Virus record (IMG/VR): IMGVR_UViG_3300049489_000151
Coordinates: 1 to 53,248 of that record
Source: a virus
Lineage: Duplodnaviria; Caudoviricetes
Strand: one strand, 5' to 3'
DNA: 53,248 nt
Shown: in pieces, positions 2,309 through 23,931 of the stretch
Layout of the letters: every line of letters starts with the position of its first letter
Numbering within the stretch: the stretch's first letter is position 1
Notes under the pieces: model-generated
Seen by the model: the letters and a program-made list of their open reading frames with translations, nothing else
Database searches by the model: none
Told to the model about the DNA's origin: nothing
Translations under genes and position numbers: made by a program

Positions 2309-2314
2309 ATGTCA

Positions 2315-2385: not shown

Positions 2386-2556
2386 TTATTGCCAGGCTTT
2401 GAGTAGCTAACTCTTCGTGAGGAGGACTAGCTAAGTCCCCTGGCTGCCTCACACACGAACCTTCCCCTTAACCGTGCTGGGTACCCGACACTCGTCTGCC
2501 GGGTGGGCCTGACTACTTAGTCCCAGTCAGGATTGGACTCTGGTAGCTAACCCAGA

Positions 2557-2647: not shown

Positions 2648-2650
2648 CAT

Positions 2651-2826: not shown

Positions 2827-2844
2827 CCGACGTAATGAGCGTCG

Positions 2845-3324
2845 TCACCTCAATAGGTGCGGAGCGTATGTACGCAGTATCGTTTCGGCGTACTCGATCT
2901 TGTCTTCGACTCGCTGTCCTCTGGGCTGCCAACGAGACCACAGCTCTAGGTTCTCAATGCGGTTGTCATTCCTTATACCGTTTTTGTGATGTACTGACTC
3001 GTGCTCGGTAAGGGGGCGACCTAGGTACTGCTCCATCATCCAACGATGTTGGGATACCGTTCTCTTCCTCCAGTTGGCTACTAGGTAGCCGTCTTTGGAC
3101 ACGTACCAAGACGGTTCAGAGGGGACCCTACATGCGGAGCATTGAGAGCTTGTCTTTAGCTTAGGAGTTCCGCAGGTGCAGGTGTCTTTGCGTAGGTGGT
3201 AGTTCTGCTTTCTTCTAGTCGTCCAACAGTCTTTGCACGTACTTGCAAGCCCGTTCTTCTTTCTCGGGTCTTTCCAGAAGTCTTCTTCTGGTTTATCGGT
3301 CAGGCAGTTCTTACAAGTCGTCAT
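2845..3324 (-). CDS. HNH homing endonuclease with N-terminal Cys zinc motifs
   Basis: HRWMMEQYLGRPL...VHHKNGIRNDNRIENLEL; free-standing within the tRNA array. Confidence 0.92.
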   Translation of the reverse strand: MTTCKNCLTDKPEEDFWKDPRKKNGLASTCKDCWTTRRKQNYHLRKDTCTCGTPKLKTSSQCSACRVPSEPSWYVSKDGYLVANWRKRTVSQHRWMMEQYLGRPLTEHESVHHKNGIRNDNRIENLELWSRWQPRGQRVEDKIEYAETILRTYAPHLLR

Positions 3325-10315: not shown

Positions 10316-10727
10316 CCTTTAACCGATTGACTCCGTTATCAGCGATGCACTTCCAGATGTCCTCTGTCGTCCACCTGGTAGCGCGCTCTTTCCCATCGGT
10401 ACTGTAACTACGTAGTGTCAACCGTAGGTCGGGGAAGACTTGCAGAAGCGCACTCGCCACGTACGCCACAGCCAGGGCGTATCCATACCCTTTGGTCAGT
10501 TCCGGGTTCAGGGGGCCCAGATCCTTTCCAGATGCGCTGGTGAGCCAGAACACGAACTGTCTCACTACGTCTTCGTTCTGGGGGTCGATCTGCTGCATAG
10601 ACAAAACTGTCTCGCCCTGGCTGGTGAAGTCGATCGTGGTGGCCACTCGCATATTGGGGAGCATAGTGTGCCTATCGATTCGTGTCAACCATCGGGGGGC
10701 CATTTTCAGAATGGGCCTATAGAGCAA
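10290..10727 (-). CDS. Hypothetical protein (start uncertain)
   Basis: First ORF of the leftward unit. Confidence 0.55.
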   Translation of the reverse strand: MLYRPILKMAPRWLTRIDRHTMLPNMRVATTIDFTSQGETVLSMQQIDPQNEDVVRQFVFWLTSASGKDLGPLNPELTKGYGYALAVAYVASALLQVFPDLRLTLRSYSTDGKERATRWTTEDIWKCIADNGVNRLKVDRNRGTY

Positions 10728-10817
10728 GGTGGAGTTGCTCTCGGCTCTGAATACCTACCCCCTCACTCTCCGTGGCATCCGACTTAAGGGAGGGGGGTCT
10801 AATCTCACGCTGAGTGA

Positions 10818-11247
10818 TGTGACGTTTGCCACAGCAATACCAGAACTGGAGTTCCTGTGACGTTTGTCATAGCTGTGGATAACTGCTGTGACGTTTGTCA
10901 TAGTTGTGTGGTTATCCACACACTGTGGACAGTTATCCCACTATGAGTGGTGATATGGGGATATGACTACTCACAGTGGTCACTGTGACGTTTGCCACAC
11001 GCGCCCATTGCCCCCTATATGGCCATATGCGCCATTTGCCCCCCATTACGCACCAACCATGCCAACCCCCCTGTGGATTACGTCTTCTAGCCCCTGTGTA
11101 TAACTCATTCTCATTGGGGGCGAGGCCCCCAAACCCTTATGCCATATGGGCCCCCCACTGGTAATGAGACTCAATGAGAATAGAACTGAGAATAGACGTT
11201 ATCCACAGGAGTCGTAGGGGGCCATATCATCTGTGCCAAACGTCACA
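10818..11247. repeat. Five copies of 16-mer TGTGACGTTTG(C/T/G)CA(C/T)A
   Basis: 10818-10833, 10856-10871, 10887-10902, 10984-10999, and inverted 11232-11247; resembles the CRP box TGTGA-N6-TCACA. Confidence 0.9.
10874..11207. promoter_or_regulatory. DnaA-box cluster (origin-like region)
   Basis: TGTGGATAA 10874, TTATCCACA 10912 and 11199, TGTGTATAA 11095; near-matches at 10924 and 11072; sits at a divergent strand switch. Confidence 0.75.
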
Positions 11248-11672
11248 GCCCTAGTGTTGGCCCTACTGTGCGTGAGGGGTTGACCACTTGGCGTAAGCGG
11301 GTAGGAAACGGAGGTGTTGCACCCATTGTGTCAGTTGCTACCGAGGAGACGCAGGTGTTGTGACCCATGGGATATCAATTCACCCACCATCGGAGAGCTG
11401 GGAGCAGGCATGTAGATCCGAGCCTGGATCTCGTCGTGCTCACCACCAGAAGCAGGTCTGTTCCTACATCTCTTGTCTCTCTCTCTACTGTGTTGTCATC
11501 CCCGTGGGGGGCGAGGTTGGGGGCGCCCTGTCATCGCAGAATCACGTGAGCAGGCCCCAGGAGAGCCCAGGAGGCTCGCAGGCGGATACAGAGCTATGAC
11601 GGGCTTAGAAACGTGGAGATCGCCATACATGGGTACGAACATTACAGTTTGGTTACATCTCCCTGTATGACG

Positions 11673-11700
11673 TTGTCTGCCCGTTGGGGGCCAGTATGGT
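11673..11700 (+). promoter_or_regulatory. Candidate promoter of the rightward early-like unit
   Basis: TTGTCT-N16-TATGGT immediately upstream of a GC hairpin. Confidence 0.45.
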
Positions 11701-11703
11701 TCC

Positions 11704-12114
11704 TCTTGCCGCCCCGCATATCGGGCGGCGAGGGAGAATCCCCTCCGCACTACCGGCGCAGACGTTGCGCTTGCGGACATGGGAGCCAAGTCACCCGAAA
11801 GGGGGCGATCGTCCCGTCGAGACTCAGGGGGACCGCTGGCACGCTGTAGGGCGTGGGCCAGTCTTCCTGAGATCCAGCACGCTTATCACGTCGCTCGGGG
11901 GGAGATCCGAGAGCATCTAGTCCTAGTCCACTGGGAGCAGGCTCCGGGAGCACACAAGGTTGCTCAGTCGTTTCATCCTTCTCACCCGCAAGGGTTCGGC
12001 ACTGGCGTCCGTACAGCAACCTCCCGTGATTGGGTTGTGCTCGCTCTCATCCACTCTGAACACGCCCCTCGCAGGCCCTAGTAGAGAGTGGATGGGGGCG
12101 AGGACAATCCGGTC
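11704..12114 (+). ncRNA. About 410-nt structured leader or ncRNA ending in a 30-bp hairpin
   Basis: Successive hairpins with GAAA/GCAA loops; 12028-12057 pairs with 12085-12114 with several G-U pairs and one mismatch. Confidence 0.55.
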
Positions 12115-12138
12115 CACACTGAACATTGGAGACACACA

Positions 12139-12357
12139 ATGAGCATTGACCTGGTAATCAAGGCCGAGACCGAGGGACTCGACACCGAGGAAGAGGTGAT
12201 CGAGCTGGCCATATTCGTACTCGATACCAAGCTGTATCGCTCCCAGGGGTCATGGGGGCGATTCCTTGCCAACCTGCAAGAGACGGACTTGTGGGCAGCA
12301 GTTGAGGCCCACTACGGCGTGACGACTCCTGCCATGGACGACAACCCGATCAGCTGA
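12139..12357 (+). CDS. Small phage protein (SQGSWGR motif)
   Basis: RBS TTGGAG; leader ACATTGGAGACACACAATG is identical to that of the gene at 13186. Confidence 0.8.
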   Translation: MSIDLVIKAETEGLDTEEEVIELAIFVLDTKLYRSQGSWGRFLANLQETDLWAAVEAHYGVTTPAMDDNPIS

Positions 12358-12360
12358 ACA

Positions 12361-12421
12361 TGCCGAAACCCCTTCGGGGGTCGGTGGGGGGTGCTTCCCC
12401 CACCCTGACGATGGCAGGCAC
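12361..12421 (+). ncRNA. Type II hammerhead ribozyme 1 (cleavage predicted after C12382)
   Basis: TGCC-GAAA-CCCC(TTCG)GGGG-TC-GGTGGGGG(GTGCTT)CCCCCACC-CTGACGA-T-GGCA; 3' tail AGGCAC pairs with loop I. Confidence 0.93.
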
Positions 12422-12448
12422 CACGACACAAGCAAGGGAGACATCACC

Positions 12449-12757
12449 ATGCGTTCCACCACCTACTCACAGCGACTCGACAAGAACGACAAGCGTCCTG
12501 ACCTCACAGTGCAGACCTCACAGGGTCTCGACAACGACATGGTCATCGTCACGGTTGGTCCCATTGGGGGCCCGTTCCAGACGGTGTACCTCTCGCCCGC
12601 CCAGGCACGTGCCCAGGGTGCGGCCATGATCGAAATGGCCGACGAGGTGGAGCCTCGCCAGCAAACGTGCCCCACTTGCGGCCACGTCGCAGATCACAAC
12701 GGGTGGTTCTGCGGTAACGGTTCCTTCCACACTCTCGACAAGGAAGTGCAGTCATGA
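12449..12757 (+). CDS. Hypothetical protein with C-terminal CxxC motif
   Basis: AAGGGAG RBS. Confidence 0.8.
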   Translation: MRSTTYSQRLDKNDKRPDLTVQTSQGLDNDMVIVTVGPIGGPFQTVYLSPAQARAQGAAMIEMADEVEPRQQTCPTCGHVADHNGWFCGNGSFHTLDKEVQS

Positions 12758-13101
12758 GCGACCGAGGAGACTTCGAACAGCGGTCACGTGTCCTGAGCGC
12801 CACGTACGACTTCGTGGACTGGATCAACAGTCTGGGCCACCTTTCACGCCTGTCAGGGGGGGCCACTATCCCGAACGGCTACCACTACAGCGTGGACACT
12901 CCTGGCAAGAGGTTCGTCCGCATCGTGATGCACACGCCTTCCCGCAGCGTCCACGCCTTCGTGGACCTCACCACGGGTGACCTCCTCAAGGCTGCAGGCT
13001 GGAAGGAACCGGCCAAGGGTGCCCGTGGTAACCTCCTGACCGGTCAGGACGAGGTGCGCCAGCGCTTCGACTGGAGTGGTCACTACTTATACAAGCGATG
13101 A
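12754..13101 (+). CDS. Conserved phage hypothetical protein
   Basis: RFVRIV...SVHAFVDLTTGDLLKAAGWKEPAKGARGN. Confidence 0.8.
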   Translation: MSDRGDFEQRSRVLSATYDFVDWINSLGHLSRLSGGATIPNGYHYSVDTPGKRFVRIVMHTPSRSVHAFVDLTTGDLLKAAGWKEPAKGARGNLLTGQDEVRQRFDWSGHYLYKR

Positions 13102-13161
13102 GCCGAAACGCCCGCAAGGGCGTCCACCAGGAATGATCTCCTGGTGCTGACGAGGCAGATC
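13102..13161 (+). ncRNA. Type II hammerhead ribozyme 2 (cleavage predicted after C13124)
   Basis: GCC-GAAA-CGCCC(GCAA)GGGCG-TC-CACCAGGA(ATGATC)TCCTGGTG-CTGACGA-GGC; tail GATC pairs with loop I. Confidence 0.94.
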
Positions 13162-13185
13162 CCGACATCACATTGGAGACACACA

Positions 13186-13827
13186 ATGGCCAGCGAGAAG
13201 CAGATTGGCTTCATCACGAAGCTCATCAATCAGAAATACGTACCGGAGCAGGCAGGCCCCATGCTGGAGGCAATGCCCTGGGATCAACTCGACAATCGAC
13301 AGGCGTCGGCAGTCATTGAGAAGCTGATGAAACAGGCTGACCTCCCAGACCCGGCAGTGCCCGACGTGGTCTCTGCTGAGGCTCGCCACGGCGTCAATAG
13401 CTCGCAGGGAGCATGCGCCACGTGTGGCCACGTAGTAGCTGCTAACGCAGGATACTACTACGGGCCATTCCCCACGGGGAGCCGGTGGCAGACTCACCAC
13501 CGAGTCGGTGAGTGCAGCACCGAGCCCGCCCCCACGCCGGTCACGGTGGAAGAGGGTTGGTACGTGGTGGGAGATACGATCTTTCAGGTGTACACAACCC
13601 GCAACGGTCGGCTCGCTGGTAAGCGAGCCGATGAGCACACGGGCAAGATGGTCTACGCACCTGGGGCTGTCACCACCGCATCCACGGGCACCAAGCTCAC
13701 CGTGGCGGAAGCAGCAGCGTTCGGCCACCGCACCGGTCGTTGCCTCATCTGCTCACGTGAGCTGACCGACCCCGTGAGCATTGAGCAAGGCATCGGCCCC
13801 GTGTGTATCACGAAGATCGGAGCCTGA
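13186..13827 (+). CDS. DUF6011-like domain protein
   Basis: N-terminal ASEKQIGFI; C-terminal CLICSRELTDPVSIEQGIGPVC. Confidence 0.82.
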   Translation: MASEKQIGFITKLINQKYVPEQAGPMLEAMPWDQLDNRQASAVIEKLMKQADLPDPAVPDVVSAEARHGVNSSQGACATCGHVVAANAGYYYGPFPTGSRWQTHHRVGECSTEPAPTPVTVEEGWYVVGDTIFQVYTTRNGRLAGKRADEHTGKMVYAPGAVTTASTGTKLTVAEAAAFGHRTGRCLICSRELTDPVSIEQGIGPVCITKIGA

Positions 13828-13829
13828 CC

Positions 13830-13991
13830 ATGATGGAGCACTTCACAGCTATCAAGAGCGCCATCATCCTGGGGCTGGATGTGGAGGCCGACGACCCCGC
13901 CATGAGAGACTTCCTCCCTCCCCTGACGCCCGATCAGATCGACTGGCTGGCTTCATGGTTGGTTTCGGAAGGTATCGGTAAGCGAAAGTGA
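13830..13991 (+). CDS. Small hypothetical protein
   Basis: GGAG RBS; stop abuts hammerhead 3. Confidence 0.65.
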   Translation: MMEHFTAIKSAIILGLDVEADDPAMRDFLPPLTPDQIDWLASWLVSEGIGKRK

Positions 13992-14056
13992 GTCGAAACG
14001 GGGCTTGTGCCCCGTCGTTGTAGTGTGAGAGACTACGGCCTGACGAGACATCTCAT
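13992..14056 (+). ncRNA. Type II hammerhead ribozyme 3 (cleavage predicted after C14016)
   Basis: GTC-GAAA-CGGGGC(TTGT)GCCCCG-TC-GTTGTAGT(GTGAGAG)ACTACGGC-CTGACGA-GAC; tail TCTCAT pairs with loop I GTGAGA. Confidence 0.94.
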
Positions 14057-14081
14057 CCACCCTTCACCATCGGAGACAGAC

Positions 14082-15617
14082 ATGGCGAATCCACTTGACG
14101 ACCTTCTGGGGGGCATCGTTGCGCCCTCAATAATCCACCCGCAGGACCAGCTCCTGCCGGTCACACGGGTGCCCCTGGCCCTACCTCTCTACGACTTCCA
14201 AGAGGAGGCCGTTGACCACGCTCTTCGTGGCTCCAGCATGTGTAAAGGCACTCCCGGCACGGCCGTGAGTGTGACATCGTTCGGCCCCGGCCATTCGTAC
14301 GTGGCACTCGACATGGGCCTGGGTAAGACTCCGGTGGGCATTACGCTCGCAGCGTCGGCCGCAGCTGTTCGTGACACTCCGGTGCTGGTGGTCGTTCCCC
14401 CTTCGCTCCGCTTCAATTGGCGACGAGAGTTCGCCAAGTTCGCCCCTACACTCTCAGTAGAGACCCTGGAGGGGGCCACGTGCCCCAACCTTGAGACGTG
14501 GGTAGCTCCTGAGGTGGACGTACTTCTCATGGGAGACTCGCAGCTCGCAGGATGGCACGAGGCCCTGACCGGCAAGGTGCGGGACTTCATCGTGGACGAA
14601 GCTCACAGGCTCAAGAACAAGAGTGGGCGCACCAAGGCCATGCTGGCGATCAGTGAGGCGTGCGACGGGCTCCGAGTGCTCATGAGTGGCACACCGATCC
14701 CCAACGGTCGCCATACCGAGCTTGACATGCAGCTCAACATCCTGGGCCCCGCTGCATGGCGGGACATCGGGGGCAAGGGCAAGTTCTACACTCATTACGC
14801 ACCGATCGTGGACTCTCGCTACGGGTCACGGTCATCACAGAATGGTGACGAGCTTCACCGTGACCTCACCCGCACGTTCTTCTTCCGCCGTCGTCGTGAC
14901 GAGGTGCTGGAGATGCCCGCCAAGGGGCGCACGGCGATCAGCATCGAAGCTGAGGGCAAGCCGAAGCGTGACTACGTGCGAGCAGAGGATGACCTCATCC
15001 AGTGGCTCGCTGAGGAGGGCCTGAACTTCAAGGGGGCGCAGCGTGCTGAGGCTCTCGTGCGGCTCACCACCCTCCGCAAGCTGGCCGGTGCCAGCAAGGT
15101 CAAGGGCATCGTGGAGCACGTCAAGGAGATCCTGGACAACGCTCCTGGAGGTGTGTTCGTGGTCGCTGAGCACAAGGACACAATCGACCAGATCATGGCA
15201 GGGCTGGCCAAGTACAACCCTGTAGCCGTGCGAGGTGGCATGACCGACAAGCAGAAGCAGATGAACGTCGATGACTTCTGCGACGGTACGTCACGAGTGA
15301 TGGTCGGCCAGATCGTGGCCGCTGGCGTGGGGCTCACGCTCCACGGTGGTGGGCTCAATCACCGAGTGGTCATCGCTCAGCTCCCCTGGACTCCTGCTGA
15401 CCTTCGGCAAGCCGAGGATCGTCTCCACCGCATCGGGCAGACGCACGACGTCGAAGTGGAGGTGTGCATGGCGAGCATCGATGGTCGGTGGACGATCGAT
15501 GAGCGACTGTGGGGGCAGCTCGAATCCAAGGCGTTCGCTGCCGGTGAAATCACCGATGGTGAGGGCGAGGTACTGCTGGAGGAGATTGTCGGGGGCGTTC
15601 TCGACAGCTACCGATGA
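14082..15617 (+). CDS. SNF2-family (SMARCAL1-like) helicase
   Basis: DMGLGKT, DEAH, SGTP, GVGLTL, QAEDRLHRIGQ. Confidence 0.93.
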   Translation: MANPLDDLLGGIVAPSIIHPQDQLLPVTRVPLALPLYDFQEEAVDHALRGSSMCKGTPGTAVSVTSFGPGHSYVALDMGLGKTPVGITLAASAAAVRDTPVLVVVPPSLRFNWRREFAKFAPTLSVETLEGATCPNLETWVAPEVDVLLMGDSQLAGWHEALTGKVRDFIVDEAHRLKNKSGRTKAMLAISEACDGLRVLMSGTPIPNGRHTELDMQLNILGPAAWRDIGGKGKFYTHYAPIVDSRYGSRSSQNGDELHRDLTRTFFFRRRRDEVLEMPAKGRTAISIEAEGKPKRDYVRAEDDLIQWLAEEGLNFKGAQRAEALVRLTTLRKLAGASKVKGIVEHVKEILDNAPGGVFVVAEHKDTIDQIMAGLAKYNPVAVRGGMTDKQKQMNVDDFCDGTSRVMVGQIVAAGVGLTLHGGGLNHRVVIAQLPWTPADLRQAEDRLHRIGQTHDVEVEVCMASIDGRWTIDERLWGQLESKAFAAGEITDGEGEVLLEEIVGGVLDSYR

Positions 15618-15622
15618 GTAAC

Positions 15623-15658
15623 ACAGGAGGGTGTCACGACTCTGTGACACCCTCCTGT
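15623..15658 (+). terminator. 15-bp perfect intergenic hairpin
   Basis: ACAGGAGGGTGTCAC-GACTCT-GTGACACCCTCCTGT. Confidence 0.6.
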
Positions 15659-15696
15659 TAGGGTGCTAACCAACCGAACGAGACAAGGAGTCAGAC

Positions 15697-16071
15697 ATGA
15701 AGATCACACAGTACGAGGGGGGAATCCCCTACCAGACAGAAGTACCGGACCCCAACCCTGCCACGCTGGCATCGTTCGAACGGTTCCTGGATACTATTCC
15801 CTGCTCATGCAGAGGAGAGGCCCACGATGAGTGCAGGCGTTGCGCAGAGTGCGATGAGCAAGGTGCCATGAACGACGTGGTGGACGACCCGGACGGGGGA
15901 GTCATGTGGCTCTGTGATGACTGCTACGAGGCAGCAGTCATAGCTGAGGAGGACGAATACAACCGCCAACGTGCTGAGTACGAAGCACTCGACATCGATG
16001 CCATCCGTGAGGACCACGAAGCCATGAAGTTCGACGCCTGGTGGCAAGAGCAGAAGGAGAACCGATCATGA
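15697..16071 (+). CDS. Cys-rich acidic hypothetical protein
   Basis: AAGGAG RBS; several CxxC motifs. Confidence 0.75.
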   Translation: MKITQYEGGIPYQTEVPDPNPATLASFERFLDTIPCSCRGEAHDECRRCAECDEQGAMNDVVDDPDGGVMWLCDDCYEAAVIAEEDEYNRQRAEYEALDIDAIREDHEAMKFDAWWQEQKENRS

Positions 16072-16280
16072 GCGGCAGCACCGACAACGAGTGGTGGTGG
16101 ATGATACCAATCATGCTCGTCATCGTAATCGTAACCCTCATTCTGGGGGCTACGGGTGTCATCGGCCCTATGTACGAGGAGTGCGAAGAGTACGGCACCG
16201 TGCTGGTCACGGTGGACGGAGATCAACGGTGCGTCCCCTGGGAACAAGCACCTGACCTGCAAGACTTCCCCCAACCCTGA
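16068..16280 (+). CDS. Small membrane protein
   Basis: One TM helix; ATGA overlap. Confidence 0.7.
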   Translation: MSGSTDNEWWWMIPIMLVIVIVTLILGATGVIGPMYEECEEYGTVLVTVDGDQRCVPWEQAPDLQDFPQP

Positions 16281-16324
16281 CCAATCCATTGACAACCATT
16301 CGACACAAGGAGTAGAAAGACATC

Positions 16325-18352
16325 ATGAAGACACGTACCCAGACCCGCAACGTAACTACCCACGGCTTGGGCGACATCACGTCGTTCAGCATCGCCACGA
16401 ACGGCAAGGCCTTCCGGTCGCTGATCGACTCGGTGTACACCGACAAGGTCACCACTCCCATTCGTGAGCTGATGACCAACGCCTTCGACTCGCACTCTGC
16501 TGCTGGTAAGGGGGACGAGCCATTCACAGTGTTTGTCCCCACCGGTCGTGACCTGCGGTTCGCAGTGAGAGACTACGGCACTGGCATGGACCACGATACG
16601 GTGACCAACCTCTACACCACGCTCTTCGCTTCCTCCAAGGAGGATACGAACGACGAGGTGGGCCAGCTTGGTCTTGGTTCCAAGAGCCCGTTCGCTTACA
16701 CCGACACGTTCACCGTGACGGCGTTCGATGGTGCTAGCAAGAGGGTCTACACGGCCTTCATGGCATCGGACCTGCCCCAGCTTGCACTGCTCCATGAGGG
16801 AGAGAGCACCGAGCCTCAGGGCATCCTGGTGGAGTTCCCGGTCAAGTACCAGGACGTGGGAGACTTTCAGAAGAAGGTGGGCTTCGTGGCACTCGGGTTC
16901 GATGTCAAGCCTGTCATCTCTGGAGGGTCTATCGACATCGCCCGACCGCTGTCCAGTGGGGACGGCTGGAAGCTGTACAAGGCTGGCTATCACGGTAGCT
17001 CTCCATTCCGGGGGCAGGAGGTGTACGTGCGCCAGGGGTGCGTCATCTACCCGGTCCCCAGTCGTGCAGCGATCGACTTCCCCATCGACTACGACACTGC
17101 GGTCGTCATCGACGTGCCGATTGGCACGGCTGAGGTGACCCTCTCTCGTGAGGCACTCCAGTGGGACGACGTGACCCGTGAGGGTGTCGTCTCGTACGCA
17201 GACAAGGCGTGGAAGGACGCATGCAAGTCCCACCAGGAAGCGTACGACGCTCTCCCACGTCTCGTGGACAAGCTGCGGTACCGCAACAAGAACATCCCTC
17301 GCAATTGGTGGGGGCACATGAAGATCTCCCAGCAGAGCGGCATCAGCCTGCTCGGTGACATCGGCGGTGAGGATCTCAAGAAGGCTGTCGCCGCAGCGGT
17401 CCCCGGCACCATGGCTCTACTGGCCACTCCCACCACCAGCTACGGTGTCAAGACATCGGTGTGCTACTACCAGGACGTGAACGAGCTGGGCAGTGTGAGC
17501 GTGGTGCTCATGGACGACTCGACACCTCGCCGGGTATCACGTGTTCGTCAGTGGGGGCGTTCTGGGGGCGCTGGTAGCTCTCGATACACCAGCAGCAAGT
17601 ACCTGTACCTCCCTGTCGAAGGACAGGCCAAGGCCAAGGCACGTATCCAAGAGGTGTGGGGGCTCAAGGATGAGCAATTCATCCCCGTGTCTGATCTCCC
17701 AGACATCGACCGTGAGGTGGCCGCCAAGATCAACCCAACCGCCAAGACCGTACTGCAGGAGCTGCAAGACAAGCTGGACGACGGTGCGATCTGGGTGGGT
17801 ACACACTCACGGCGTCATGAGTACCTGACGCTGACCAACGCTCTGAGCGACCCTACGAGTCGTAGGGGATGGGAGACCTACATCACCAAGTTGGAAGATG
17901 CGTTCCCCTATCTCTACTCCAGGGTGACGGGGGGAGAGGAGGTGCTGTACCTCAGCCGTGCCCAGCGGGAGACTCTCACGGTCAATGCGGACCGTGAGCT
18001 GTCGAACGTCATGAGTGGGTACATCAAGACTCACGTCCAGGAATACATCGATATCTACACTGCCAACGAGGTCAGGTCCTCAGTGTCCTCTATCATCCGC
18101 TACGAAGCTCGTAGCGCAGTGCTCCAGGCTCTCAATCTCACAGTAACGGGAAGTGTGGGTAACCTGGGGCACGAGCTGGTACGTGGGGCAAACCTGCTCG
18201 GTATCGACACATCGGTAGACCAGGACAAGGTGCAGGGGGCAATCGACCTGGTGCGCAAGACCTTCCCGCTCCTCTTCCCGCTTGACGGGCCAGAGATGCT
18301 GGAGTACATTCAGAAGCAAGCAGCAACACTCAACCAAGGAGATCAGTCATGA
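16325..18352 (+). CDS. rIIA: rIIA-like protein (GHKL ATPase N-terminal domain)
   Basis: IRELMTNAFDSH, VRDYGTGM, GQLGLGSKSPFAY; adjacent to rIIB-like gene. Confidence 0.88.
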   Translation: MKTRTQTRNVTTHGLGDITSFSIATNGKAFRSLIDSVYTDKVTTPIRELMTNAFDSHSAAGKGDEPFTVFVPTGRDLRFAVRDYGTGMDHDTVTNLYTTLFASSKEDTNDEVGQLGLGSKSPFAYTDTFTVTAFDGASKRVYTAFMASDLPQLALLHEGESTEPQGILVEFPVKYQDVGDFQKKVGFVALGFDVKPVISGGSIDIARPLSSGDGWKLYKAGYHGSSPFRGQEVYVRQGCVIYPVPSRAAIDFPIDYDTAVVIDVPIGTAEVTLSREALQWDDVTREGVVSYADKAWKDACKSHQEAYDALPRLVDKLRYRNKNIPRNWWGHMKISQQSGISLLGDIGGEDLKKAVAAAVPGTMALLATPTTSYGVKTSVCYYQDVNELGSVSVVLMDDSTPRRVSRVRQWGRSGGAGSSRYTSSKYLYLPVEGQAKAKARIQEVWGLKDEQFIPVSDLPDIDREVAAKINPTAKTVLQELQDKLDDGAIWVGTHSRRHEYLTLTNALSDPTSRRGWETYITKLEDAFPYLYSRVTGGEEVLYLSRAQRETLTVNADRELSNVMSGYIKTHVQEYIDIYTANEVRSSVSSIIRYEARSAVLQALNLTVTGSVGNLGHELVRGANLLGIDTSVDQDKVQGAIDLVRKTFPLLFPLDGPEMLEYIQKQAATLNQGDQS

Positions 18353-19299
18353 GCAGCTACCCGTACATCATCAGTGAGAATAGTCTCACTGTCTTCCTCC
18401 AGGGCGAGGCGTTCACCGTGGACGCCACCGCCCCCAACTACCAGGCCATCGAATCGGCCTTGGCAGACGGGGTCATGGATGAAGACTATCTGCGGAGCCT
18501 CTTCGGCGGCTACGACACCAGTGCAGCGATGCTCTTCGATGACTCCGCCAACAACGGACTGGTCAAGGTCACTCGCAACGGTGTGACCTACGCCGGTCAT
18601 GTGGTCAACAGTGTGCTGGCTGACCGCATGGTGGACATCGCTGATAAAGGGCTCCCTTTGGAGCCGTGGGTCAACTTCCTCAACAAGGTCATGGCCAACC
18701 CTGAGCCATTCGCTCAGGAGGAGCTGTACCTGTGGCTGGCCAAGAGTGACCTGCCCATCACCGATGACGGTGACTTCCTGGCGTACAAGAAGGTCAACGA
18801 CGACTTCACCGACATCTACTCGGGGACGATCGACAACAGCCCCGGCCAGACTGTGGTCATGCCGGGTGGCCGGTCGGAGGTTGACAACGACCGTGACAAT
18901 CTCTGCTCCATCGGTCTTCATTTCTGCTCCAAGAGCTATCTGCCACAGTTCGGCAGGCAGGACGGTGACCGGGTGGTGCTGGTCAAGGTCAACCCGACCG
19001 ACGTGGTGTCGATCCCAGCCGACTACCAGAACGCCAAGGGGCGCACGTGGAAGTACGAGGTGGTCCAGGAGATCACCGGCCTCGACCCGCACGAGATCAA
19101 CCTGCCCCCGGTGGTCCACGTCGAAGACAGCGACATCTACACCGACTTCGTCTGGTCCCCAGAGGATGACGACTGGGACGACGACTTCGATGACGACTGG
19201 GACGCCCTCATCGATGAGGACGACAACCCGTGGTCGGCACCGGCTCCCCAGCAGGTCAAGGGTTTCTGGAAGACCATCTGGCAGAAAGTGACCGCATGA
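18349..19299 (+). CDS. rIIB: rIIB-like protein
   Basis: LPITDDGDFLAYKKV, CSIGLHFCS, VKVNPTDVVSIPADY. Confidence 0.92.
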   Translation: MSSYPYIISENSLTVFLQGEAFTVDATAPNYQAIESALADGVMDEDYLRSLFGGYDTSAAMLFDDSANNGLVKVTRNGVTYAGHVVNSVLADRMVDIADKGLPLEPWVNFLNKVMANPEPFAQEELYLWLAKSDLPITDDGDFLAYKKVNDDFTDIYSGTIDNSPGQTVVMPGGRSEVDNDRDNLCSIGLHFCSKSYLPQFGRQDGDRVVLVKVNPTDVVSIPADYQNAKGRTWKYEVVQEITGLDPHEINLPPVVHVEDSDIYTDFVWSPEDDDWDDDFDDDWDALIDEDDNPWSAPAPQQVKGFWKTIWQKVTA

Positions 19300-19312
19300 C
19301 AGGAGGTGACAC

Positions 19313-19423
19313 ATGCAGGAAGCAATCCGGTTCAACAGCCGTGAGGTAACCATTCGGTTCTTCACCGTTGGGGTCCACGAGATGGACCTCAAAGACATCC
19401 TTGACGCCCTCAAGAGGCGCTGA
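19313..19423 (+). CDS. 36-aa hypothetical protein
   Basis: AGGAGG RBS; MQEAIRFNSREVTIRFF. Confidence 0.55.
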   Translation: MQEAIRFNSREVTIRFFTVGVHEMDLKDILDALKRR

Positions 19424-19430
19424 GAGGGGT

Positions 19431-19462
19431 AAGAGGGAGGGGTATCAATACCCCTCCCTCTT
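19431..19462 (+). terminator. 14-bp hairpin
   Basis: AAGAGGGAGGGGTA-TCAA-TACCCCTCCCTCTT. Confidence 0.55.
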
Positions 19463-19500
19463 TCCATGTACGCTCGCACCCAACAGAAAGGAGGCCCCCA

Positions 19501-19758
19501 ATGCCAGAGCTAACAGAAGCAGAACGAACCATGATTGCAGCGCTAGCCCAAGTGGTCATCGTAGACAGGTTGAAGCGTGCCGTGGAAGTTGGCACCACGT
19601 CGAAGGGGCGTATCATCTGCGAGTTCGTAGGTGAGCCATCCGAAGCCGAGAAGAAGTGGGAAGAGATCAGGGCTAGGTTCGCCCCTCCCCCTTCGGTTAT
19701 CAAGGGGGGGCCACACAAGGCCCCCGTCACGCACGAAGAGGCATGGAAGGAAGACTGA
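19501..19758 (+). CDS. Hypothetical protein
   Basis: AAAGGAGG RBS. Confidence 0.7.
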   Translation: MPELTEAERTMIAALAQVVIVDRLKRAVEVGTTSKGRIICEFVGEPSEAEKKWEEIRARFAPPPSVIKGGPHKAPVTHEEAWKED

Positions 19759-19760
19759 CC

Positions 19761-20222
19761 GTGAGACAGAGCTACGAGTTCCGCACTGAGATCTCAAACA
19801 TGCTGCACAGGAAGGAGAAGATCCAAGCCGTCAAGTCAGTCAAAGACTTCTATGGCATCGGCCTCATGGAGGCCAAGGACCTGGTGGACAGTATCAGCAC
19901 CAGCCAGGTGTATAACAACCTCTGCTACGACGTTGACACCACGTTCGACCTGTACGAGGCTGGCTGTGCTTTCAGCAGCAAGCCGACAAGCGACCGCAAG
20001 ACCGGGGATGTCGAGAAGCTGGCAGAAACGCTGGCTGCCATGGTGTGGGCCAAACTGGAAGACAAGATCGACCAAGCCTTTACAGAACCGTTGGCGTGGG
20101 ATATCCAACAGCTACGCAACGACCTCACTCTCATCTCCAACCAACTCTACGACACCGACGCCAGAGTGTTAGAGGTTCGCAAGGACATCGCTGTCACTCG
20201 GCAACAGATCAGGATGAAATGA
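19761..20222 (+). CDS. Ribosomal protein L7/L12 C-terminal-like domain plus coiled coil
   Basis: KIQAVKSVKDFYGIGLMEAKDLVD resembles the KIxVIKxVRxxTGLGLKEAKDLVE motif. Confidence 0.75.
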   Translation: MRQSYEFRTEISNMLHRKEKIQAVKSVKDFYGIGLMEAKDLVDSISTSQVYNNLCYDVDTTFDLYEAGCAFSSKPTSDRKTGDVEKLAETLAAMVWAKLEDKIDQAFTEPLAWDIQQLRNDLTLISNQLYDTDARVLEVRKDIAVTRQQIRMK

Positions 20223-20353
20223 TGGACAACGACATCTCACTCGACACCAACGAGACCAACTGGCTCGTCAACTTCACGCTCTCCGTCATTGCGGGGGGCG
20301 TGCTACTCACAGTGACTTCGGTCACAGCCGCACTATATGTCTTGCTTTCGTAG
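20219..20353 (+). CDS. Small membrane peptide
   Basis: ATGA overlap; hydrophobic C-terminal half. Confidence 0.5.
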   Translation: MMDNDISLDTNETNWLVNFTLSVIAGGVLLTVTSVTAALYVLLS

Positions 20354-20370
20354 AATCCATACCCTACTAT
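20342..20370 (+). promoter_or_regulatory. SigA-like promoter
   Basis: TTGCTT-N17-TACTAT upstream of the AAA gene. Confidence 0.6.
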
Positions 20371-20410
20371 GACCCAGTACCCGCAAACACACGCCCAAGG
20401 AGCACACAAC

Positions 20411-21751
20411 ATGGTTGCCACCAAGTCACTCAACGCAGGAACTCCCGTCACGGTCTCGGCCGGTCCCCTGGAGGGGGCGACGGGGTTCGTCGTCAACCCG
20501 ATCGCCGTACCAGACGGTGAGATCAATGCACGAAAGGTTCTCGTGAACCTGGATGGGGACGACGTGTACATTCTCCCCCGCATGCTGGACTTCGACTTCG
20601 CCCAGAAGTCAGATGCTCCTGTCACGGTGGCGCAGGTCGCCGCCAAGGTTTCCCACCACCGTTCACAAGAGGAGAGCACCATGATCACCGACCCCATGGA
20701 CCCAGCACTCGACCAGTTCCGACCCAACTCCAACATCGTTCGTGAGTACGTCTCTCGCATCGTGTGCAAGGGGGACAACTTCAAGGGCTACCGTGACACC
20801 GACTACTTCCTCCACCTGAGGGACATGCGGGACAGCAACGGCTACAGCCCGAACATCGCCCTGGTGGGGGACACTCAGTCGGGCAAGACCATGCTGGTCA
20901 ACGTGCTGGCAGTGCTGGCAGCCGAGCGTGACGGACACCCGAAGCCGTACCCCGTGTTCACGATCAACGGCTCGTCTGGTATCTCGTCGTTCGACCTCTA
21001 CGGCATGACCACTGCAGTCCGTGAGGATGGCCAGGAGGTGCTGGTCTGGATGGATGGCATCGTGCACATGGCAGCCGCTTGCGGTGGCATCCTCTACCTG
21101 GACGAGTGGAACGCCGTTCCCCCATCGCAGGCAGTCGCCATCCACCCGCTGCTGGACGATCGTCGCCAGTTCACCAACACCCAGAAGGCGGTCCCCAACG
21201 GTCACGGTGGGTACAACCCGGAAGTGGTCAAGGCCAACACCAACATGTGGGTCATCTCTACGGTGAACCCTGGCTACAAGGGGACGCAGCTGGTCGCAGA
21301 GGCCACCAGCAACCGCTTCCGTTGGGTGCCGTGGAACTACGACCCGAAGACTGAGCGCAAGCTGGTCAAGAGCAAGGGTGTGCTGGGATTCGGCAACGCT
21401 CTTCGTGACCTCTACGCCGGTCACGAGATCACGGTCCCGGTTGGTACCTCGGCGCTCGTCCGGTTCGCTCAGGACGCAGCACACCTCGGTGTGGAGGCTG
21501 CTCTCAGCAACTTCGTGGGTATGTTCCCCCCTCGGGAGCAGAGCGTGGTGCAGGCAGTGTTCACGTCGGACAACTTCGACGTGACGATCGCCAAGGAATA
21601 CCCCAACCCCACGTTCCAGCGCACCGGTGATGAGATCATCGAAGATGCCACCCCCGCAGAGGTGGAGCCGGAGGACAACGACCCCCACGTGTCAGACGTT
21701 GATCAGGCAGTCGAAGACGCTCTCCAGAGCCTCCTCAACGGCAACAGCTGA
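20411..21751 (+). CDS. MoxR/CobS-like AAA+ ATPase
   Basis: Walker A GDTQSGKT, Walker B LYLDE, sensor NPGY, NRF arginine finger. Confidence 0.9.
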   Translation: MVATKSLNAGTPVTVSAGPLEGATGFVVNPIAVPDGEINARKVLVNLDGDDVYILPRMLDFDFAQKSDAPVTVAQVAAKVSHHRSQEESTMITDPMDPALDQFRPNSNIVREYVSRIVCKGDNFKGYRDTDYFLHLRDMRDSNGYSPNIALVGDTQSGKTMLVNVLAVLAAERDGHPKPYPVFTINGSSGISSFDLYGMTTAVREDGQEVLVWMDGIVHMAAACGGILYLDEWNAVPPSQAVAIHPLLDDRRQFTNTQKAVPNGHGGYNPEVVKANTNMWVISTVNPGYKGTQLVAEATSNRFRWVPWNYDPKTERKLVKSKGVLGFGNALRDLYAGHEITVPVGTSALVRFAQDAAHLGVEAALSNFVGMFPPREQSVVQAVFTSDNFDVTIAKEYPNPTFQRTGDEIIEDATPAEVEPEDNDPHVSDVDQAVEDALQSLLNGNS

Positions 21752-21758
21752 CCACCAT

Positions 21759-21798
21759 GGTGTCACAACAGTACTGGTGACGGTACTGTTGTGACACC
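21759..21798 (+). terminator. 18-bp intergenic hairpin
   Basis: GGTGTCACAACAGTACTG-GTGA-CGGTACTGTTGTGACACC followed by TTT. Confidence 0.6.
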
Positions 21799-21849
21799 TT
21801 TCTCATTCACCCCCTTGACATTCCATTTCAACTAAGGAAGACTGACATC

Positions 21850-23931
21850 ATGGCATCAGGACAGAAGACCTACATCGAAAAGCAAGCAGAGCAAGCCAAC
21901 CGTGAGCGGGCAGCTAAGGCTGCAGCCCTCAAGAAGGCGGCAGACGCCGACGTGCTGCAACGAATCAAGACCGCACGCAACCGTGCTGCGCAGGAACGCA
22001 CTGTCGATTCCGCCAAGATCCAGGAGCGGTTCGCTAGTCGTGCAGTGTCACGCATCGGCAAGGACTTCAACGGTCTCATCAAGAGCCGTCGTATCCACGC
22101 TGCTGGTCGTGACGCCATCCATTGGGGGCGCAAAGGTGCTACACCTTTGGGTCGTGCACGTGTCGAGCTGGAGCGTCACGCTCTTCGCCAGGCCAACGGA
22201 GATACACCGGAGCTGCGTGCGTACACAGACTTCTCGACAGCTTACTGCTTCGTCAACGCTGACAAGGTGCCCAAGTACACGCAGCGTGAGGATGTCAAGC
22301 GATGGGTGGCCCGCATCAGGGGGGCCATGTACCACGAGCTGGGGCACATGCAGTTCTCCATTCCGTCCCGCATGGTCATCGAACGTGCTGACTTCACCCT
22401 GGACGAGGTCAAGGCCATACAGCCTGATCTCAAGCTGATCACTGAGAAGATGGTGACCAACTCGTGGAAGGGCTCCATGAAGGTCATGCACGACAACTTC
22501 GGTGAGGTACACCAGGCATGGAACATGCTTGAGGACCAGCGCATGGAGACGGCGGTTGTGCGTGACTACCCGTACGCCCCCAACTACCTGACCCCTCTGA
22601 TCACCAAGCTGATCATTCTCGACAGCCCCAATAGGGAGCTGAGCTGGACCCTCATCGGGGGTCGTAAGTACCTTCCTGTAGAGATCCGTGACGCCTCTCG
22701 TGACCGCTTCAACGAGTGGTTCGACACCCAGGCCCAAGACGTCAAGGATCTGCTCCACACCGACCCCACGGTGACACCAGCCGACCAGTGGTTGGAGATC
22801 GTGGACTCGTACAAGCAGGCGACCACCTGCGTGGACATGTTCGTCGCCATGTGTGCTGCACAGCTATGGTTGGAGCAGCTCAACCTGCCGTCGAGCGACG
22901 ACTCGCACGACAGCGCTCAGTACGAGCCCATGGACGCAGCGGAGATGGGCCGTCGTGAGAAGGGTGGTGCTACTGCCCCTGGACAGGAGCGTTCCAACGT
23001 GCGAGCTAGCGGCGGAGATGACGATGGAGACGGTGAGGGAGAGGAGGGTGGAGACGGCAAGTCCACCACCTCATCCAAGAGCGCCAGTAACGACAAGGCA
23101 CCGGAGACTTTCGGTACTCTGGAAGAGATCGCTACGGAAGTGCTGGATGACGCCCTGAACGATCTCCCAGCCGACAGCACCATCGGTGAGTCGCTGCGTG
23201 AGGCTGAGGGGGACGGACTGCTCCCCTACGACCGTCAGACAGAGGATCTCCCCAGCGAATGGGTGGACAAGGCCAACACGGTCTCTGTGGGCATTGAGAG
23301 GGCGCTGCAAGCGTTCGTAACCGCCAACGAGCCCATCTGGAAGGCACGCCAGCAGGTCGGTGTTCTTGACCCCCTGGCGTACCGCACACGAGAGACAGGG
23401 GCCATCGATTACCGCAGGTTCTTGGACGACAGTGGTCGTGAGGGTATGGACGTTCACGTGTCCATGCTCTGTGACAACAGCGGTTCGATGGGTGGCAGCA
23501 TGGGGGCGCTCTCCGCAGCGCTCTTGGCCATGGCTACGGCTTGTGAGCGAGTAGGGGCAGGGTACGACATTGTGCTCTGGTCCACCGAGTACTACCGTGT
23601 CGAAGAGCCGACCGTTCCAACGCTGTACCCCCACCTTGGGGGTACGGAAGTGGTGCCAGCCCTTGAGGATCTCAAGAACGCACCCGTTGGGCAGCACGTC
23701 AAGAACCATCTGGTGCTGCTGTTCACGGACGGAGCGTGGTACGATCACCCAGATCTGACCAAGTACCGTGAGAATGACATGCACATCAACCGCAAGTTCG
23801 TCCTTGCTAAGTACGGATCGGCTGGCTCTGCTGACTACGGAGCTGATAAGGTCGTACAGCTAACCGACATCCTTGATTTCCCCCAGCTACTGGAAGCTGG
23901 ACTCAGGGAACTGGCCGGTGGAAGGAACTGA
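21850..23931 (+). CDS. CobT-like VWA domain protein with HExxH motif
   Basis: YHELGH, NMLEDQRME, acidic linker, MIDAS DNSGSM...GGT...FTDG. Confidence 0.88.
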   Translation: MASGQKTYIEKQAEQANRERAAKAAALKKAADADVLQRIKTARNRAAQERTVDSAKIQERFASRAVSRIGKDFNGLIKSRRIHAAGRDAIHWGRKGATPLGRARVELERHALRQANGDTPELRAYTDFSTAYCFVNADKVPKYTQREDVKRWVARIRGAMYHELGHMQFSIPSRMVIERADFTLDEVKAIQPDLKLITEKMVTNSWKGSMKVMHDNFGEVHQAWNMLEDQRMETAVVRDYPYAPNYLTPLITKLIILDSPNRELSWTLIGGRKYLPVEIRDASRDRFNEWFDTQAQDVKDLLHTDPTVTPADQWLEIVDSYKQATTCVDMFVAMCAAQLWLEQLNLPSSDDSHDSAQYEPMDAAEMGRREKGGATAPGQERSNVRASGGDDDGDGEGEEGGDGKSTTSSKSASNDKAPETFGTLEEIATEVLDDALNDLPADSTIGESLREAEGDGLLPYDRQTEDLPSEWVDKANTVSVGIERALQAFVTANEPIWKARQQVGVLDPLAYRTRETGAIDYRRFLDDSGREGMDVHVSMLCDNSGSMGGSMGALSAALLAMATACERVGAGYDIVLWSTEYYRVEEPTVPTLYPHLGGTEVVPALEDLKNAPVGQHVKNHLVLLFTDGAWYDHPDLTKYRENDMHINRKFVLAKYGSAGSADYGADKVVQLTDILDFPQLLEAGLRELAGGRN

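Follow-up and report, generated by a model that had tools for sequence, protein, structure and literature searches.

The locus studied here raises the question of whether three short elements lying between small, early-type genes of an uncultured phage are self-cleaving RNAs and, if they are, what their cleavage would do to the message that carries them. The window (the whole stretch of DNA that was analyzed, 53,248 nucleotides) comes from a virus record that is 57% complete and represents an apparently lytic-type freshwater phage with rIIA/rIIB, a polymerase and 13 tRNAs. An earlier note on this DNA had read the elements as type II hammerhead ribozymes that cut a polycistronic mRNA, and had proposed an Infernal search with the Rfam type II model as a check. 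Judging from the sequence, we consider it probable, at roughly 0.8, that all three elements function as cis-cleaving type II hammerheads within one + strand transcript.

Identity of the Three Elements

Searches with RF02276, the Rfam type II hammerhead model, whose curated gathering score is 37 bits, identified matches on the + strand at 13101-13164 (56.3 bits) and 12361-12423 (39.8 bits), both over the gathering score, and a full-length match (model positions 1-66) at 13991-14057 that, with 34.6 bits, was under it. This third match had E-values of 5.9e-6 in a 131-nt search and 5.8e-7 in a search of the phage's own genome; it did not appear in an 11-kb search. The own-genome search gave three matches among 13 scored candidates, and no other ribozyme class reached its gathering score in the whole window. 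Compared with the model, all copies are full length, with the core, both closed stems, a short open stem II and the 3' tail. Apart from the score of copy 3, the departure from the model is an extra U in copy 1 (U12412, between A9 and G10.1), which was absent from the earlier note.

The consensus of the hammerhead core comprises C3 U4 G5 A6 N7 G8 A9, G12 A13 A14, the A15.1-U16.1 pair and H17, which is not G. The consensus of RF02276 agrees with it, and the core (GAA, the A-U pair, C17 and CUGACGA) is intact in all three copies, each of which has its parts in type II order on the + strand: GAAA, closed stem III, GUC, closed stem I, CUGACGA and open stem II. The predicted cuts fall after C12382, C13124 and C14016, giving predicted 5'-OH ends at 12383, 13125 and 14017, the same positions that had been named previously. 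An extra base between A9 and G10.1, as in copy 1, is reported to be tolerated, and a U at this place raised the rate of a viroid hammerhead 3-4-fold (PMC3705267).

A hammerhead descriptor of our own found exactly three matches in the whole window, all on the + strand and inside 1.7 kb, versus two matches in 50 block-shuffled windows searched on both strands (~0.04 per window). The stems of copies 1, 2 and 3 in these matches are 4, 3 and 3 bp (stem II), 5, 6 and 7 bp (stem III) and 9, 8 and 8 bp (stem I), respectively. Eight CTGANGA words occur on the + strand between 10700 and 26500, and three of them are in a hammerhead context. The coordinates of the elements and of their neighbors are given in Table 1.

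Table 1. Features of the hammerhead locus (positions in the window; cuts are predicted).
Feature	Position	Strand	Remarks
Long hairpin	12023..12120	+	Just before gene 1 leader
Gene 1	12139..12357	+	72 aa; first gene of + strand block
Hammerhead 1, type II	12361..12421	+	RF02276 39.8 bits; descriptor match; minimum-free-energy fold is the hammerhead
Hammerhead 1 stem II	12361-64 with 12413-16	+	UGCC/GGCA
Hammerhead 1 GAAA	12365-68	+	Followed by stem III with UUCG loop
Hammerhead 1 GUC	12380-82	+	Cut after 12382
Hammerhead 1 stem I	12383-12404	+	
Hammerhead 1 CUGACGA	12405-11	+	
Hammerhead 1 pseudoknot	12391-96 with 12416-21	+	
Unit 2	12449..13101	+	Gene 2 and DUF7717 gene
Gene 2	12449-12757	+	102 aa
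DUF7717 gene	12754-13101	+	115 aa; ATGA overlap with gene 2
Hammerhead 2, type II	13101..13164	+	RF02276 56.3 bits; fold kept in context; syntenic counterpart in L091/L092
Hammerhead 2 stems II and III		+	Stem II GCC/GGC; stem III with GCAA loop
Hammerhead 2 GUC	13122-24	+	Cut after 13124
Hammerhead 2 stem I	13125-46	+	
Hammerhead 2 CUGACGA	13147-53	+	
Shared translation-start leader	13170..13188	+	19 nt including GGAG and ATG; repeat search
Unit 3	13186..13991	+	DUF6011 gene and gene 5
DUF6011 gene	13186-13827	+	213 aa
Gene 5	13830-13991	+	53 aa
Hammerhead 3, type II	13991..14057	+	RF02276 34.6 bits, under cut-off; descriptor match
Hammerhead 3 stems II and III		+	Stem II GUC/GAC; stem III with UUGU loop
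Hammerhead 3 GUC	14014-16	+	Cut after 14016
Hammerhead 3 stem I	14017-39	+	Includes two U-G pairs
Hammerhead 3 CUGACGA	14040-46	+	
Hammerhead 3 pseudoknot tail	14051-56	+	
Unit 4	14082..19299	+	Helicase, possible ORF, rIIA-like, rIIB-like
SNF2-type helicase	14082-15617	+	
Possible ORF	15697-16071	+	
rIIA-like gene	16325-18352	+	
rIIB-like gene	18349-19299	+	

Stems, Pseudoknots and Predicted Folds

The three copies differ in their stems and nevertheless pair, as had been noticed earlier: of the 17 stem positions that two or more copies have in common, 12 show a difference on both sides between copies, in a core-anchored comparison of stem tables for which pairing was already required by the descriptor. 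All three of the loop I/3'-tail pseudoknots described in the earlier note were also present, with 6 bp in copy 1 (GUGCUU/AGGCAC), 5 bp in copy 2 (GAUCU/AGAUC, previously given as GATC/GATC) and 6 bp in copy 3 (GUGAGA/UCUCAU). A pseudoknot of this type, with at least 4 bp, is found in the majority of type II members (PMC3088659). When the related locus L091 was added to the three copies, the cognate loops and tails formed helices of 6, 5, 6 and 5 bp, and non-cognate combinations formed helices of at most 4 bp, with the exception of the loop of hammerhead 2 paired with the orthologous L091 tail. Between 5.7 and 10% of shuffled tails reached the length of each single pseudoknot, which makes each of them alone modestly unlikely.

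When the 3' halves of the three copies and L091 were aligned, 92.7% of cells paired versus 66.0% in shuffles, none of 500 shuffles reaching 92.7%, for a structure that was derived from those same sequences. The proportion was 38-55% when the partners in this alignment were slid, and the pseudoknot helix was 87% paired. Whole-ribozyme MAFFT alignments were structurally wrong and were replaced by the core-anchored stem tables and the 3'-half alignment. Copies 1 and 2 have the hammerhead as their minimum-free-energy fold, and copy 2 retains it in a 143-nt context. For copy 1 in a 146-nt context the lowest-energy fold swaps stems II and III for an 8-bp helix (12328-35/12411-18), and the predicted fold of copy 3 in context keeps stems I and III and lacks stem II. 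Together, the RF02276 matches (the third below the cut-off), the descriptor matches and the pseudoknots support the assignment of the three sites as genuine type II hammerheads with a loop I/3'-tail pseudoknot.

Gene Context

The stop codons upstream of the hammerheads end at 12357, 13101 and 13991, and the hammerheads begin 3, 0 and 0 nt later; hammerhead 2 shares its first base (13101) with the upstream stop codon, of which it is the last. The downstream ATGs (12449, 13186 and 14082) are 27, 24 and 25 nt past the pseudoknot tails. These open reading frame coordinates reproduce the spacing reported in the earlier note, which put each element on the coding strand, with 0-3 nt separating it from the preceding stop and 24-27 nt from the following start. 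Of 14 hammerheads in five records, 12 are directly abutted by the stop codon. The three copies inside 1.7 kb part units of one, two and two genes, with a longer unit after copy 3, within which (14082..19299) no further hammerhead cores were found. Gene 1 had no family match and no PHROG match. The 19-nt leader listed in Table 1 recurs identically at 12123-12141 and is 74% alike at 14067-14085.

The hairpin at 12023-12120 has a minimum free energy of -59.5 kcal/mol and a z-score of -5.76, with 0 of 200 shuffles as stable, and it holds the place before gene 1 that the hammerheads hold before the later units. A match of this region to MIR2950 (34.8 bits versus a cut-off of 76 bits) was rejected, as it is a long hairpin and not a microRNA.

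No sigma-70-like promoters or terminator-like sites were predicted on the + strand from 11,230 to 18,282. The sole RNA evidence is a metatranscriptome contig of 151 nt (12873-13023) that lies within a gene, has no readable strand or ends and may reflect DNA carry-over.

Conservation in Related Phages

The earlier note had proposed a check for conserved placement in related phages, and at a distance this placement was seen for one of the three copies. At the syntenic place, before the DUF6011 gene, L091/L092 carry a type II hammerhead of 43.7 bits with the same GAUC pseudoknot; their DUF6011 protein is 35% identical. In L085/L086, the closest relatives that could be used, there is a variant hammerhead at the syntenic place, with compensatory changes in stem I between the two loci, which reached only 22.6 bits with RF02276. 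The helicase gene of L091 is not preceded by a hammerhead. Because of the weak match in L085/L086 and the lack of a pre-helicase copy in L091, the middle copy is, as far as these sequences go, the only one seen to be conserved at a distance.

Based on these data, it is hardly credible that the motifs are decayed or chance look-alikes that serve as non-cleaving intergenic filler. Copy 3 is under the Rfam cut-off, copy 1 has its inserted U next to A9, and some hammerhead-like RNAs are known to be inactive (PMC3088659); against this, none of the three copies has lost a core position, the copies lie on one strand within 1.7 kb at a density far above that in the shuffled windows, their stems and pseudoknots covary, and a syntenic copy has been kept at 35% protein identity.

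Among 160 related loci (L005-L164), the descriptor matched three: L091, L092 and L156. Eighty IMG/VR records encode DUF6011 relatives; RF02276 searches of 50 of these gave none over the cut-off and two weak matches, and the other 30 were scanned at their loci with the descriptor. The closest DUF6011 relatives (P0001-P0003) have 75-89% identity. Megablast of 11500-15500 identified no cultured close relatives, and the helicase and polymerase reached at most 33% identity. An IMG/VR search with the helicase found one locus, which was 22% identical and was left out of the further comparisons.

A relative contig of 12,247 nt (X4), roughly 85% identical, had no differences listed over 12395-12443, which comprises the 3' half of hammerhead 1 and the leader, and 19 differences over the next 131 nt of the open reading frame. 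In this contig the gene 1 open reading frame has been replaced, with 216 nt exchanged for 536 other letters (joint 12145 to 12362); the left joint is 4 nt past the ATG, and the right one coincides with the first nucleotide of hammerhead 1. The contig also lacks gene 5, and here the joint falls within the GAAAC core of hammerhead 3, while the hairpin at 12023-12120 has kept its base and had its tip replaced. Two further runs (X2 and X3) gave short identical pieces only, a third (X1), which may be the source sample, was left out of the comparison, and parts of the stretch that were uncovered in any run are not evidence.

These joints bear on a reading that is compatible with self-cleavage and that we consider unlikely, namely that the hammerheads are mainly portable borders of early-gene cassettes. 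The conserved cores and leaders would provide short homologies for swapping genes in and out, as in the promoter-stem-loop cassettes of T4-type phages, and cleavage would give each incoming gene a standard, insulated message. In addition to the two joints in X4, the abutting stop codons and the occurrence of an identical 19-nt leader behind two different structured elements are consistent with such a role, as is the report by Perreault et al. that hammerheads do not always flank the same genes (PMC3088659). There is also a precedent in the PeSL cassettes of T4-type phages: these small, conserved regulatory elements lie between early genes that are non-essential, and the sites where genes have been gained, lost or replaced are marked by them (PMC2839356). 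PeSLs, however, are described as promoter-terminator DNA/RNA signals and not as ribozymes (PMC2839356), whereas recombination at hammerheads is suggested here by one relative contig. Moreover, any mosaic phage would be expected to show joints at its gene borders, since the intergenic DNA is the part that stays alignable, and the three copies share short core words only, which would be poor homology for recombination. That a hammerhead and its leader form the joints of plug-and-play early-gene cassettes, in which newcomers are recombined at or inside the core and then hairpin-capped by self-cleavage whatever lies upstream, is a tentative and rather doubtful proposal.

Known Systems and Proposed Function

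Clustered hammerheads flanking prophage genes were described and tested by Perreault et al. in 2011, who observed cleavage of three triple arrays in vitro and of one in E. coli (PMC3088659). As in those arrays, several hammerheads of the present locus fall within ~2 kb on the coding strand, separate phage genes that vary in identity, and have the type II topology with a loop I/3'-tail pseudoknot; the proposal made for them, that long phage transcripts are converted to single-gene or operon-length mRNAs, is also the same (PMC3088659). The locus has the features by which a clustered array is recognized: at least two hammerheads within a few kb, in gene orientation, intergenic and flanking short blocks of phage genes. 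Unlike the prophage arrays, it lies on a contig of an uncultured, apparently lytic-type freshwater phage, and its hammerheads flank DUF7717, DUF6011 and unknown genes. Relative to the text of that study, the abutting stop, the 19-nt leader and the gene swaps that end at a ribozyme are noted only here, and its supplementary gene maps may already show the stop and leader relations (PMC3088659).

In Desulfovibrio, in vivo cleavage has been shown for three type II hammerheads close to phage-like genes (PMC8782182). As here, the D. vulgaris hammerheads are of type II and lie beside hypothetical or phage-like genes, two of them ~300 nt apart, and their cleavage was detected both in cells (cyPhyRNA-seq) and in vitro; they differ in being on a bacterial chromosome, and a role in operon processing is outside that study as presented in its text (PMC8782182). 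A hammerhead with a crystal structure was rejected as a comparison, as its pseudoknot topology is different (PMC11300833).

We propose that a single + strand transcript would run from a divergent control region (~12,000) through the small early-type genes to the helicase and rIIA/rIIB. Each hammerhead would fold after the passage of RNA polymerase and cut behind C17 of its GUC, such that the message would be split into gene 1, genes 2-3, genes 4-5 and the helicase onward. Because the topology is type II, the upstream piece would end with the G+C-rich stem III hairpin and one C with a 2',3'-cyclic phosphate, and the downstream piece would start with a 5'-OH right at the stem I hairpin, with no overhang; after it would come the core, the tail of the pseudoknot, ~10 nt, the GGAG ribosome-binding site and the ATG. 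The pieces would be expected to part easily because stem II (3-4 bp) alone would hold them after the cut.

The early mRNA of phage T7 is polycistronic and is cut by RNase III at structured intercistronic sites, with hairpins at the new ends; this processing depends on a protein of the host and yields 5'-phosphate and 3'-OH ends. In the phage studied here, by contrast, self-cleavage of the RNA would give rise to 5'-OH and 2',3'-cyclic phosphate ends, and the parallel with T7 is an analogy of outcome, not a relationship. Cutting of a polycistronic transcript into units of one or two genes by self-cleavage is the most likely function of the predicted ribozymes, and protein-free processing of the transcript is the most reasonable reading and matches the published tests of analogous triple arrays. 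From the observed motifs, their fit to the family model, the covarying stems, the placement and the partial conservation in relatives, we infer cleavage in vivo and co-transcription of the region, and the cuts may affect stability or allow independent translation of the units.

The earlier note had further expected the 5'-OH ends to resist decay. This does not hold in general, since the 5'-OH that the glmS ribozyme generates in Bacillus subtilis is the signal for degradation by RNase J1 (PMC3328962). Because RNase J1 degrades such ends, stabilization by a 5'-OH end depends on the host.

The substrates of RtcB carry 5'-OH and 2',3'-cyclic phosphate ends, which the inter-ribozyme segments (12383-13124 and 13125-14016) would each have, and every segment has its own ribosome-binding site. 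It is conceivable, and in our view very improbable, that a host RtcB-type ligase joins these segments to give circular or spliced mRNAs. The idea was raised by Perreault et al., who sought such products and, according to their text, found none (PMC3088659). In addition, the window, from a 57% complete record, contained 0 RtcB matches, and no sequence feature that would bring the two ends of a segment together was found.

Significance

With transcript processing by self-cleavage as the preferred reading, the arrangement is one already described in 2011, and this locus is a good new example of it and not a new kind of element. It brings no new principle, and its value is that of one more well-annotated example. 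What hammerheads do in bacteria and phages has yet to be proven, fifteen years after the clusters were reported, and the locus is a clean, compact test case for this, with three divergent pseudoknotted copies, a defined 2.3-kb fragment that is expected to give four predictable pieces, and a middle copy found at the same place in phages whose neighboring protein is only 35% identical. Three small observations made here, the stop codon that abuts the ribozyme, the shared leader behind it and the gene swaps that end at it, are testable across many known arrays.

Identification of Three Type II Hammerheads

Direct reading of each of the three plus-strand elements identified, in order, a short stem II 5' strand, GAAA, a G+C-rich stem III hairpin, GUC, a stem I hairpin, CUGACGA and the stem II 3' strand. 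The stem III loops are UUCG, GCAA and UUGU in hammerheads 1, 2 and 3, respectively. Hammerhead 3 was lost to the speed filters in an 11-kb search with RF02276, the Rfam type II hammerhead model, but was recovered by a 131-nt search and by a search of the phage's own genome, in which 3 of 13 scored candidates matched. A custom descriptor that demands the core words, a stem II of 2 bp or more (with one inserted base after A9 allowed) and 4 bp or more in both stem I and stem III returned exactly the three hammerheads in the window, versus two matches in 50 block-shuffled windows (both strands). The remaining five CTGANGA words on the plus strand of 10,700-26,500 lie in coding sequence and have no hammerhead context. 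Together, the direct reading, the model matches and the descriptor bore out the proposal of the earlier note that three intergenic type II hammerheads are present.

Features of the hammerhead locus in genome order, with RF02276 scores (cut-off 37 bits)
Feature	Coordinates	Strand	Size or score	Upstream stop ends	Predicted cleavage after	Next ATG
23-nt repeats	10817-11005		4 copies
Long hairpin	12023-12120	+	-59.5 kcal/mol
Leader before gene 1	12123-12141		19 nt
Gene 1	12139-12357	+	72 aa
Hammerhead 1	12361-12423	+	39.8 bits, above cut-off	12357	C12382	12449
Gene 2		+	102 aa
DUF7717 gene		+
Hammerhead 2	13101-13164	+	56.3 bits, above cut-off	13101	C13124	13186
Leader after hammerhead 2	13170-13188		19 nt
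DUF6011 gene		+
Gene 5	13830-13991	+	53 aa
Hammerhead 3	13991-14057	+	34.6 bits, full length, below cut-off	13991	C14016	14082
Leader behind hammerhead 3	14067-14085
SNF2-type helicase gene		+
rIIA-like gene		+
rIIB-like gene		+

The sections of Perreault et al. 2011 (PMC3088659) drawn on here describe natural type II hammerheads with a loop I/3'-tail pseudoknot that matters for speed, and triple arrays, three of which cleaved in vitro and one in E. coli; circular or spliced products are reported there as not detected. Those clustered arrays are likewise type II with a loop I/3'-tail pseudoknot, as in the window. According to the cited part of the cyPhyRNA-seq study (PMC8782182), cleavage in Desulfovibrio cells occurs at three type II hammerheads close to phage-like genes. 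Judged from its sequence, the locus has the defining features of the type II hammerhead family and its clustered arrangement; activity and co-transcription are predicted.

Stem and Pseudoknot Pairing

In a core-anchored comparison, 5 of the 17 stem positions common to at least two copies were invariant, including the near-core pairs G10.1-C11.1, A15.1-U16.1 and C15.2-G16.2. The remaining 12 vary between copies on both sides; since pairing is preset by the descriptor, this count shows the divergence of the copies and is alone no proof of pairing. When the 3' halves of all three hammerheads and of a counterpart from a distant relative (L091) were aligned with MAFFT, 92.7% of cells were paired in the stem I and pseudoknot structure, which was drawn from those very sequences. 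Shuffles gave 66.0% (0 of 500 attained 92.7%) and sliding of the partners gave 38-55%.

Pairing of loop I with the sequence directly after stem II gives pseudoknots of 6, 5 and 6 bp in copies 1, 2 and 3, respectively. Non-cognate loop and tail pairings reached at most 4 bp, the sole exception being the hammerhead 2 loop with the tail of its L091 counterpart. Because 5.7-10% of shuffled tails match the observed length for each copy taken singly, support for the pseudoknots is moderate per copy and stronger for the copies jointly.

Copy 1 has an additional U (12412) between A9 and G10.1. Further type II hammerheads were observed in two complete IMG/VR phage records with a DUF6011-domain gene elsewhere (L165, 1501-1561 and 1991-2052; L166, minus strand of the locus), and in two of these three, one in each record, the extra U after A9 is also present. 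According to the cited portion of a review, a viroid hammerhead tolerated an additional base there, and a U at that position gave 3-4-fold faster cleavage (PMC3705267).

Genomic Setting

The viral record is linear, 53,248 bases long and 57% complete by CheckV, and DNA of the window was found in freshwater sediment and freshwater metagenome runs. A minus-strand block ending near 10,700 carries 13 tRNA genes and a ribonucleotide reductase small-chain gene, and is followed by a gap of ~1.4 kb with few ORFs and repeated 23-mers. These 23-nt repeats, built around GTGACGTTTG(C/T)CA and located where the two gene blocks diverge, resemble operator or origin repeats. The plus-strand block starts at 12,139, and its gene content makes the label of an "early-like" operon appear fair. 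No promoter-like or terminator-like sites were predicted on the plus strand of 11,230-18,282, which agrees with a single transcript without proving it. A 151-nt metatranscriptome contig identical to 12873-13023 offers no more than a weak hint of transcription.

The hammerheads begin 3, 0 and 0 nt downstream of the preceding stop codons, and the next ATGs, each with GGAG before it, lie 27, 24 and 25 nt past the pseudoknot tails. Across five records, 12 of 14 hammerheads start -2 to +3 nt from the stop of an upstream open frame of at least 37 codons. The leader after hammerhead 2, with its GGAG and ATG, is identical to that before gene 1, and the one behind hammerhead 3 is 74% alike. Base pairing around GGAG is possible in this leader between the ATG and a CAU upstream of it.

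The leader before gene 1 stands directly after a long hairpin (z-score -5.76; 0 of 200 shuffles equally stable), which fills the slot ahead of gene 1 that hammerheads hold ahead of the later units. This hairpin may serve at the head of the operon as an element for processing or stabilisation that depends on a protein (RNase III-type). Its only Rfam match, to a microRNA, was sub-threshold and judged spurious.

Relatives of the Locus

No close relative was found in the phage, IMG/VR or JGI metagenome collections. Two of the contigs encoding DUF6011 relatives, L091/L092 (35% protein identity), have, in this order, a DUF7717 gene, a small ORF, a type II hammerhead (43.7 bits) with the GAUC pseudoknot of copy 2, a DUF6011 gene and a helicase gene, and have no hammerhead ahead of the latter. 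In two others, L085/L086 (46% identity), the position syntenic with copy 2 is taken by a hammerhead-like variant (L086 1168-1232). It keeps GAAA, GUA or GUU, CUGACGA and a UGGC/GCCA pseudoknot, and its stem I differs between L085 and L086 by compensatory changes, but stem II is non-standard (10.1/11.1 would be U opposite U) and RF02276 gave only 22.6 bits; the element may be a variant that is still active or a copy in decay. Based on these syntenic counterparts, the middle copy is old. At the distance of these contigs the outer two hammerheads were not seen, and conserved placement was observed for the middle copy only.

Hammerheads are not general to the neighbourhoods of DUF6011 relatives: RF02276 gave no match above cut-off in 50 IMG/VR records searched of 80 found, and the descriptor matched in 3 of 160 related loci. 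One of these is L156, a metagenome contig with a DUF6011 relative of its own, where seven type II hammerheads stand in 2.6 kb (468-3083, plus strand). Five of the seven share 1-2 nt with the stop codon upstream, and the following start lies 5-12 nt past stem II. No loop I/tail pseudoknot was found in them (at most 3 bp), and Rfam finds only three, at 26-35 bits, all below cut-off.

A 12,247-nt contig from a lake-water run (X4) aligns with 12001-14231 at a likeness below 90%. In this contig the gene 1 ORF is exchanged (216 nt versus 536 other letters), with its left joint 4 nt past the ATG and its right joint on the first hammerhead 1 base. Gene 5 is missing, and the joint there falls within hammerhead 3, in its GAAAC core. 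Divergence is too great to align the DUF7717 3' end and the 5' part of hammerhead 2, but the length is unchanged (65 versus 66). No differences are listed at 12395-12443 versus 19 at 12444-12574, in a listing that leaves out positions within ~30 nt of a piece end. The base of the long hairpin is retained, and 33 nt at its tip are swapped for 66 other letters. That hammerhead and leader together form the joints of exchangeable early-gene cassettes, as this one contig and the placement statistics might suggest, we consider rather improbable.

Folding and Proposed Processing

The lowest-energy fold of copy 1 in a 146-nt context contains an 8-bp helix (12328-35/12411-18) that displaces stems II and III. 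The end of gene 1 (12328-12335) is here perfectly complementary to the stem II 3' strand and the start of the pseudoknot tail (12411-12418). This predicted helix could be a translation-sensitive competitor; it cannot be kept in the X4 relative, because gene 1 is replaced there. The lowest-energy fold of copy 3 in context lacks stem II. These two predicted folds call for caution; we speculate that the active fold could gain an advantage from folding during transcription and from ribosomes occupying the upstream ORF.

Because the topology is type II, the upstream product would end in the stem III hairpin and in C17 bearing a cyclic phosphate, the downstream one would have a 5'-OH and start flush with the stem I hairpin, and after cleavage the two would be joined by stem II alone (3-4 bp). 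The pseudoknot would be retained within the downstream product. Hairpins at RNA ends are known to slow both exonucleases and the 5'-end-dependent RNase E. The decay resistance that the earlier note expected of the downstream pieces is narrowed in one respect, as a 5'-OH alone does not protect in every host: cited work on Bacillus subtilis (PMC3328962) describes this end as the mark that exposes the glmS transcript to RNase J1. The overall reading of the earlier note appears right in kind, with the function predicted. The best-supported interpretation is that co-transcriptional self-cleavage would split one message of this phage into units of one, two, two and more genes.
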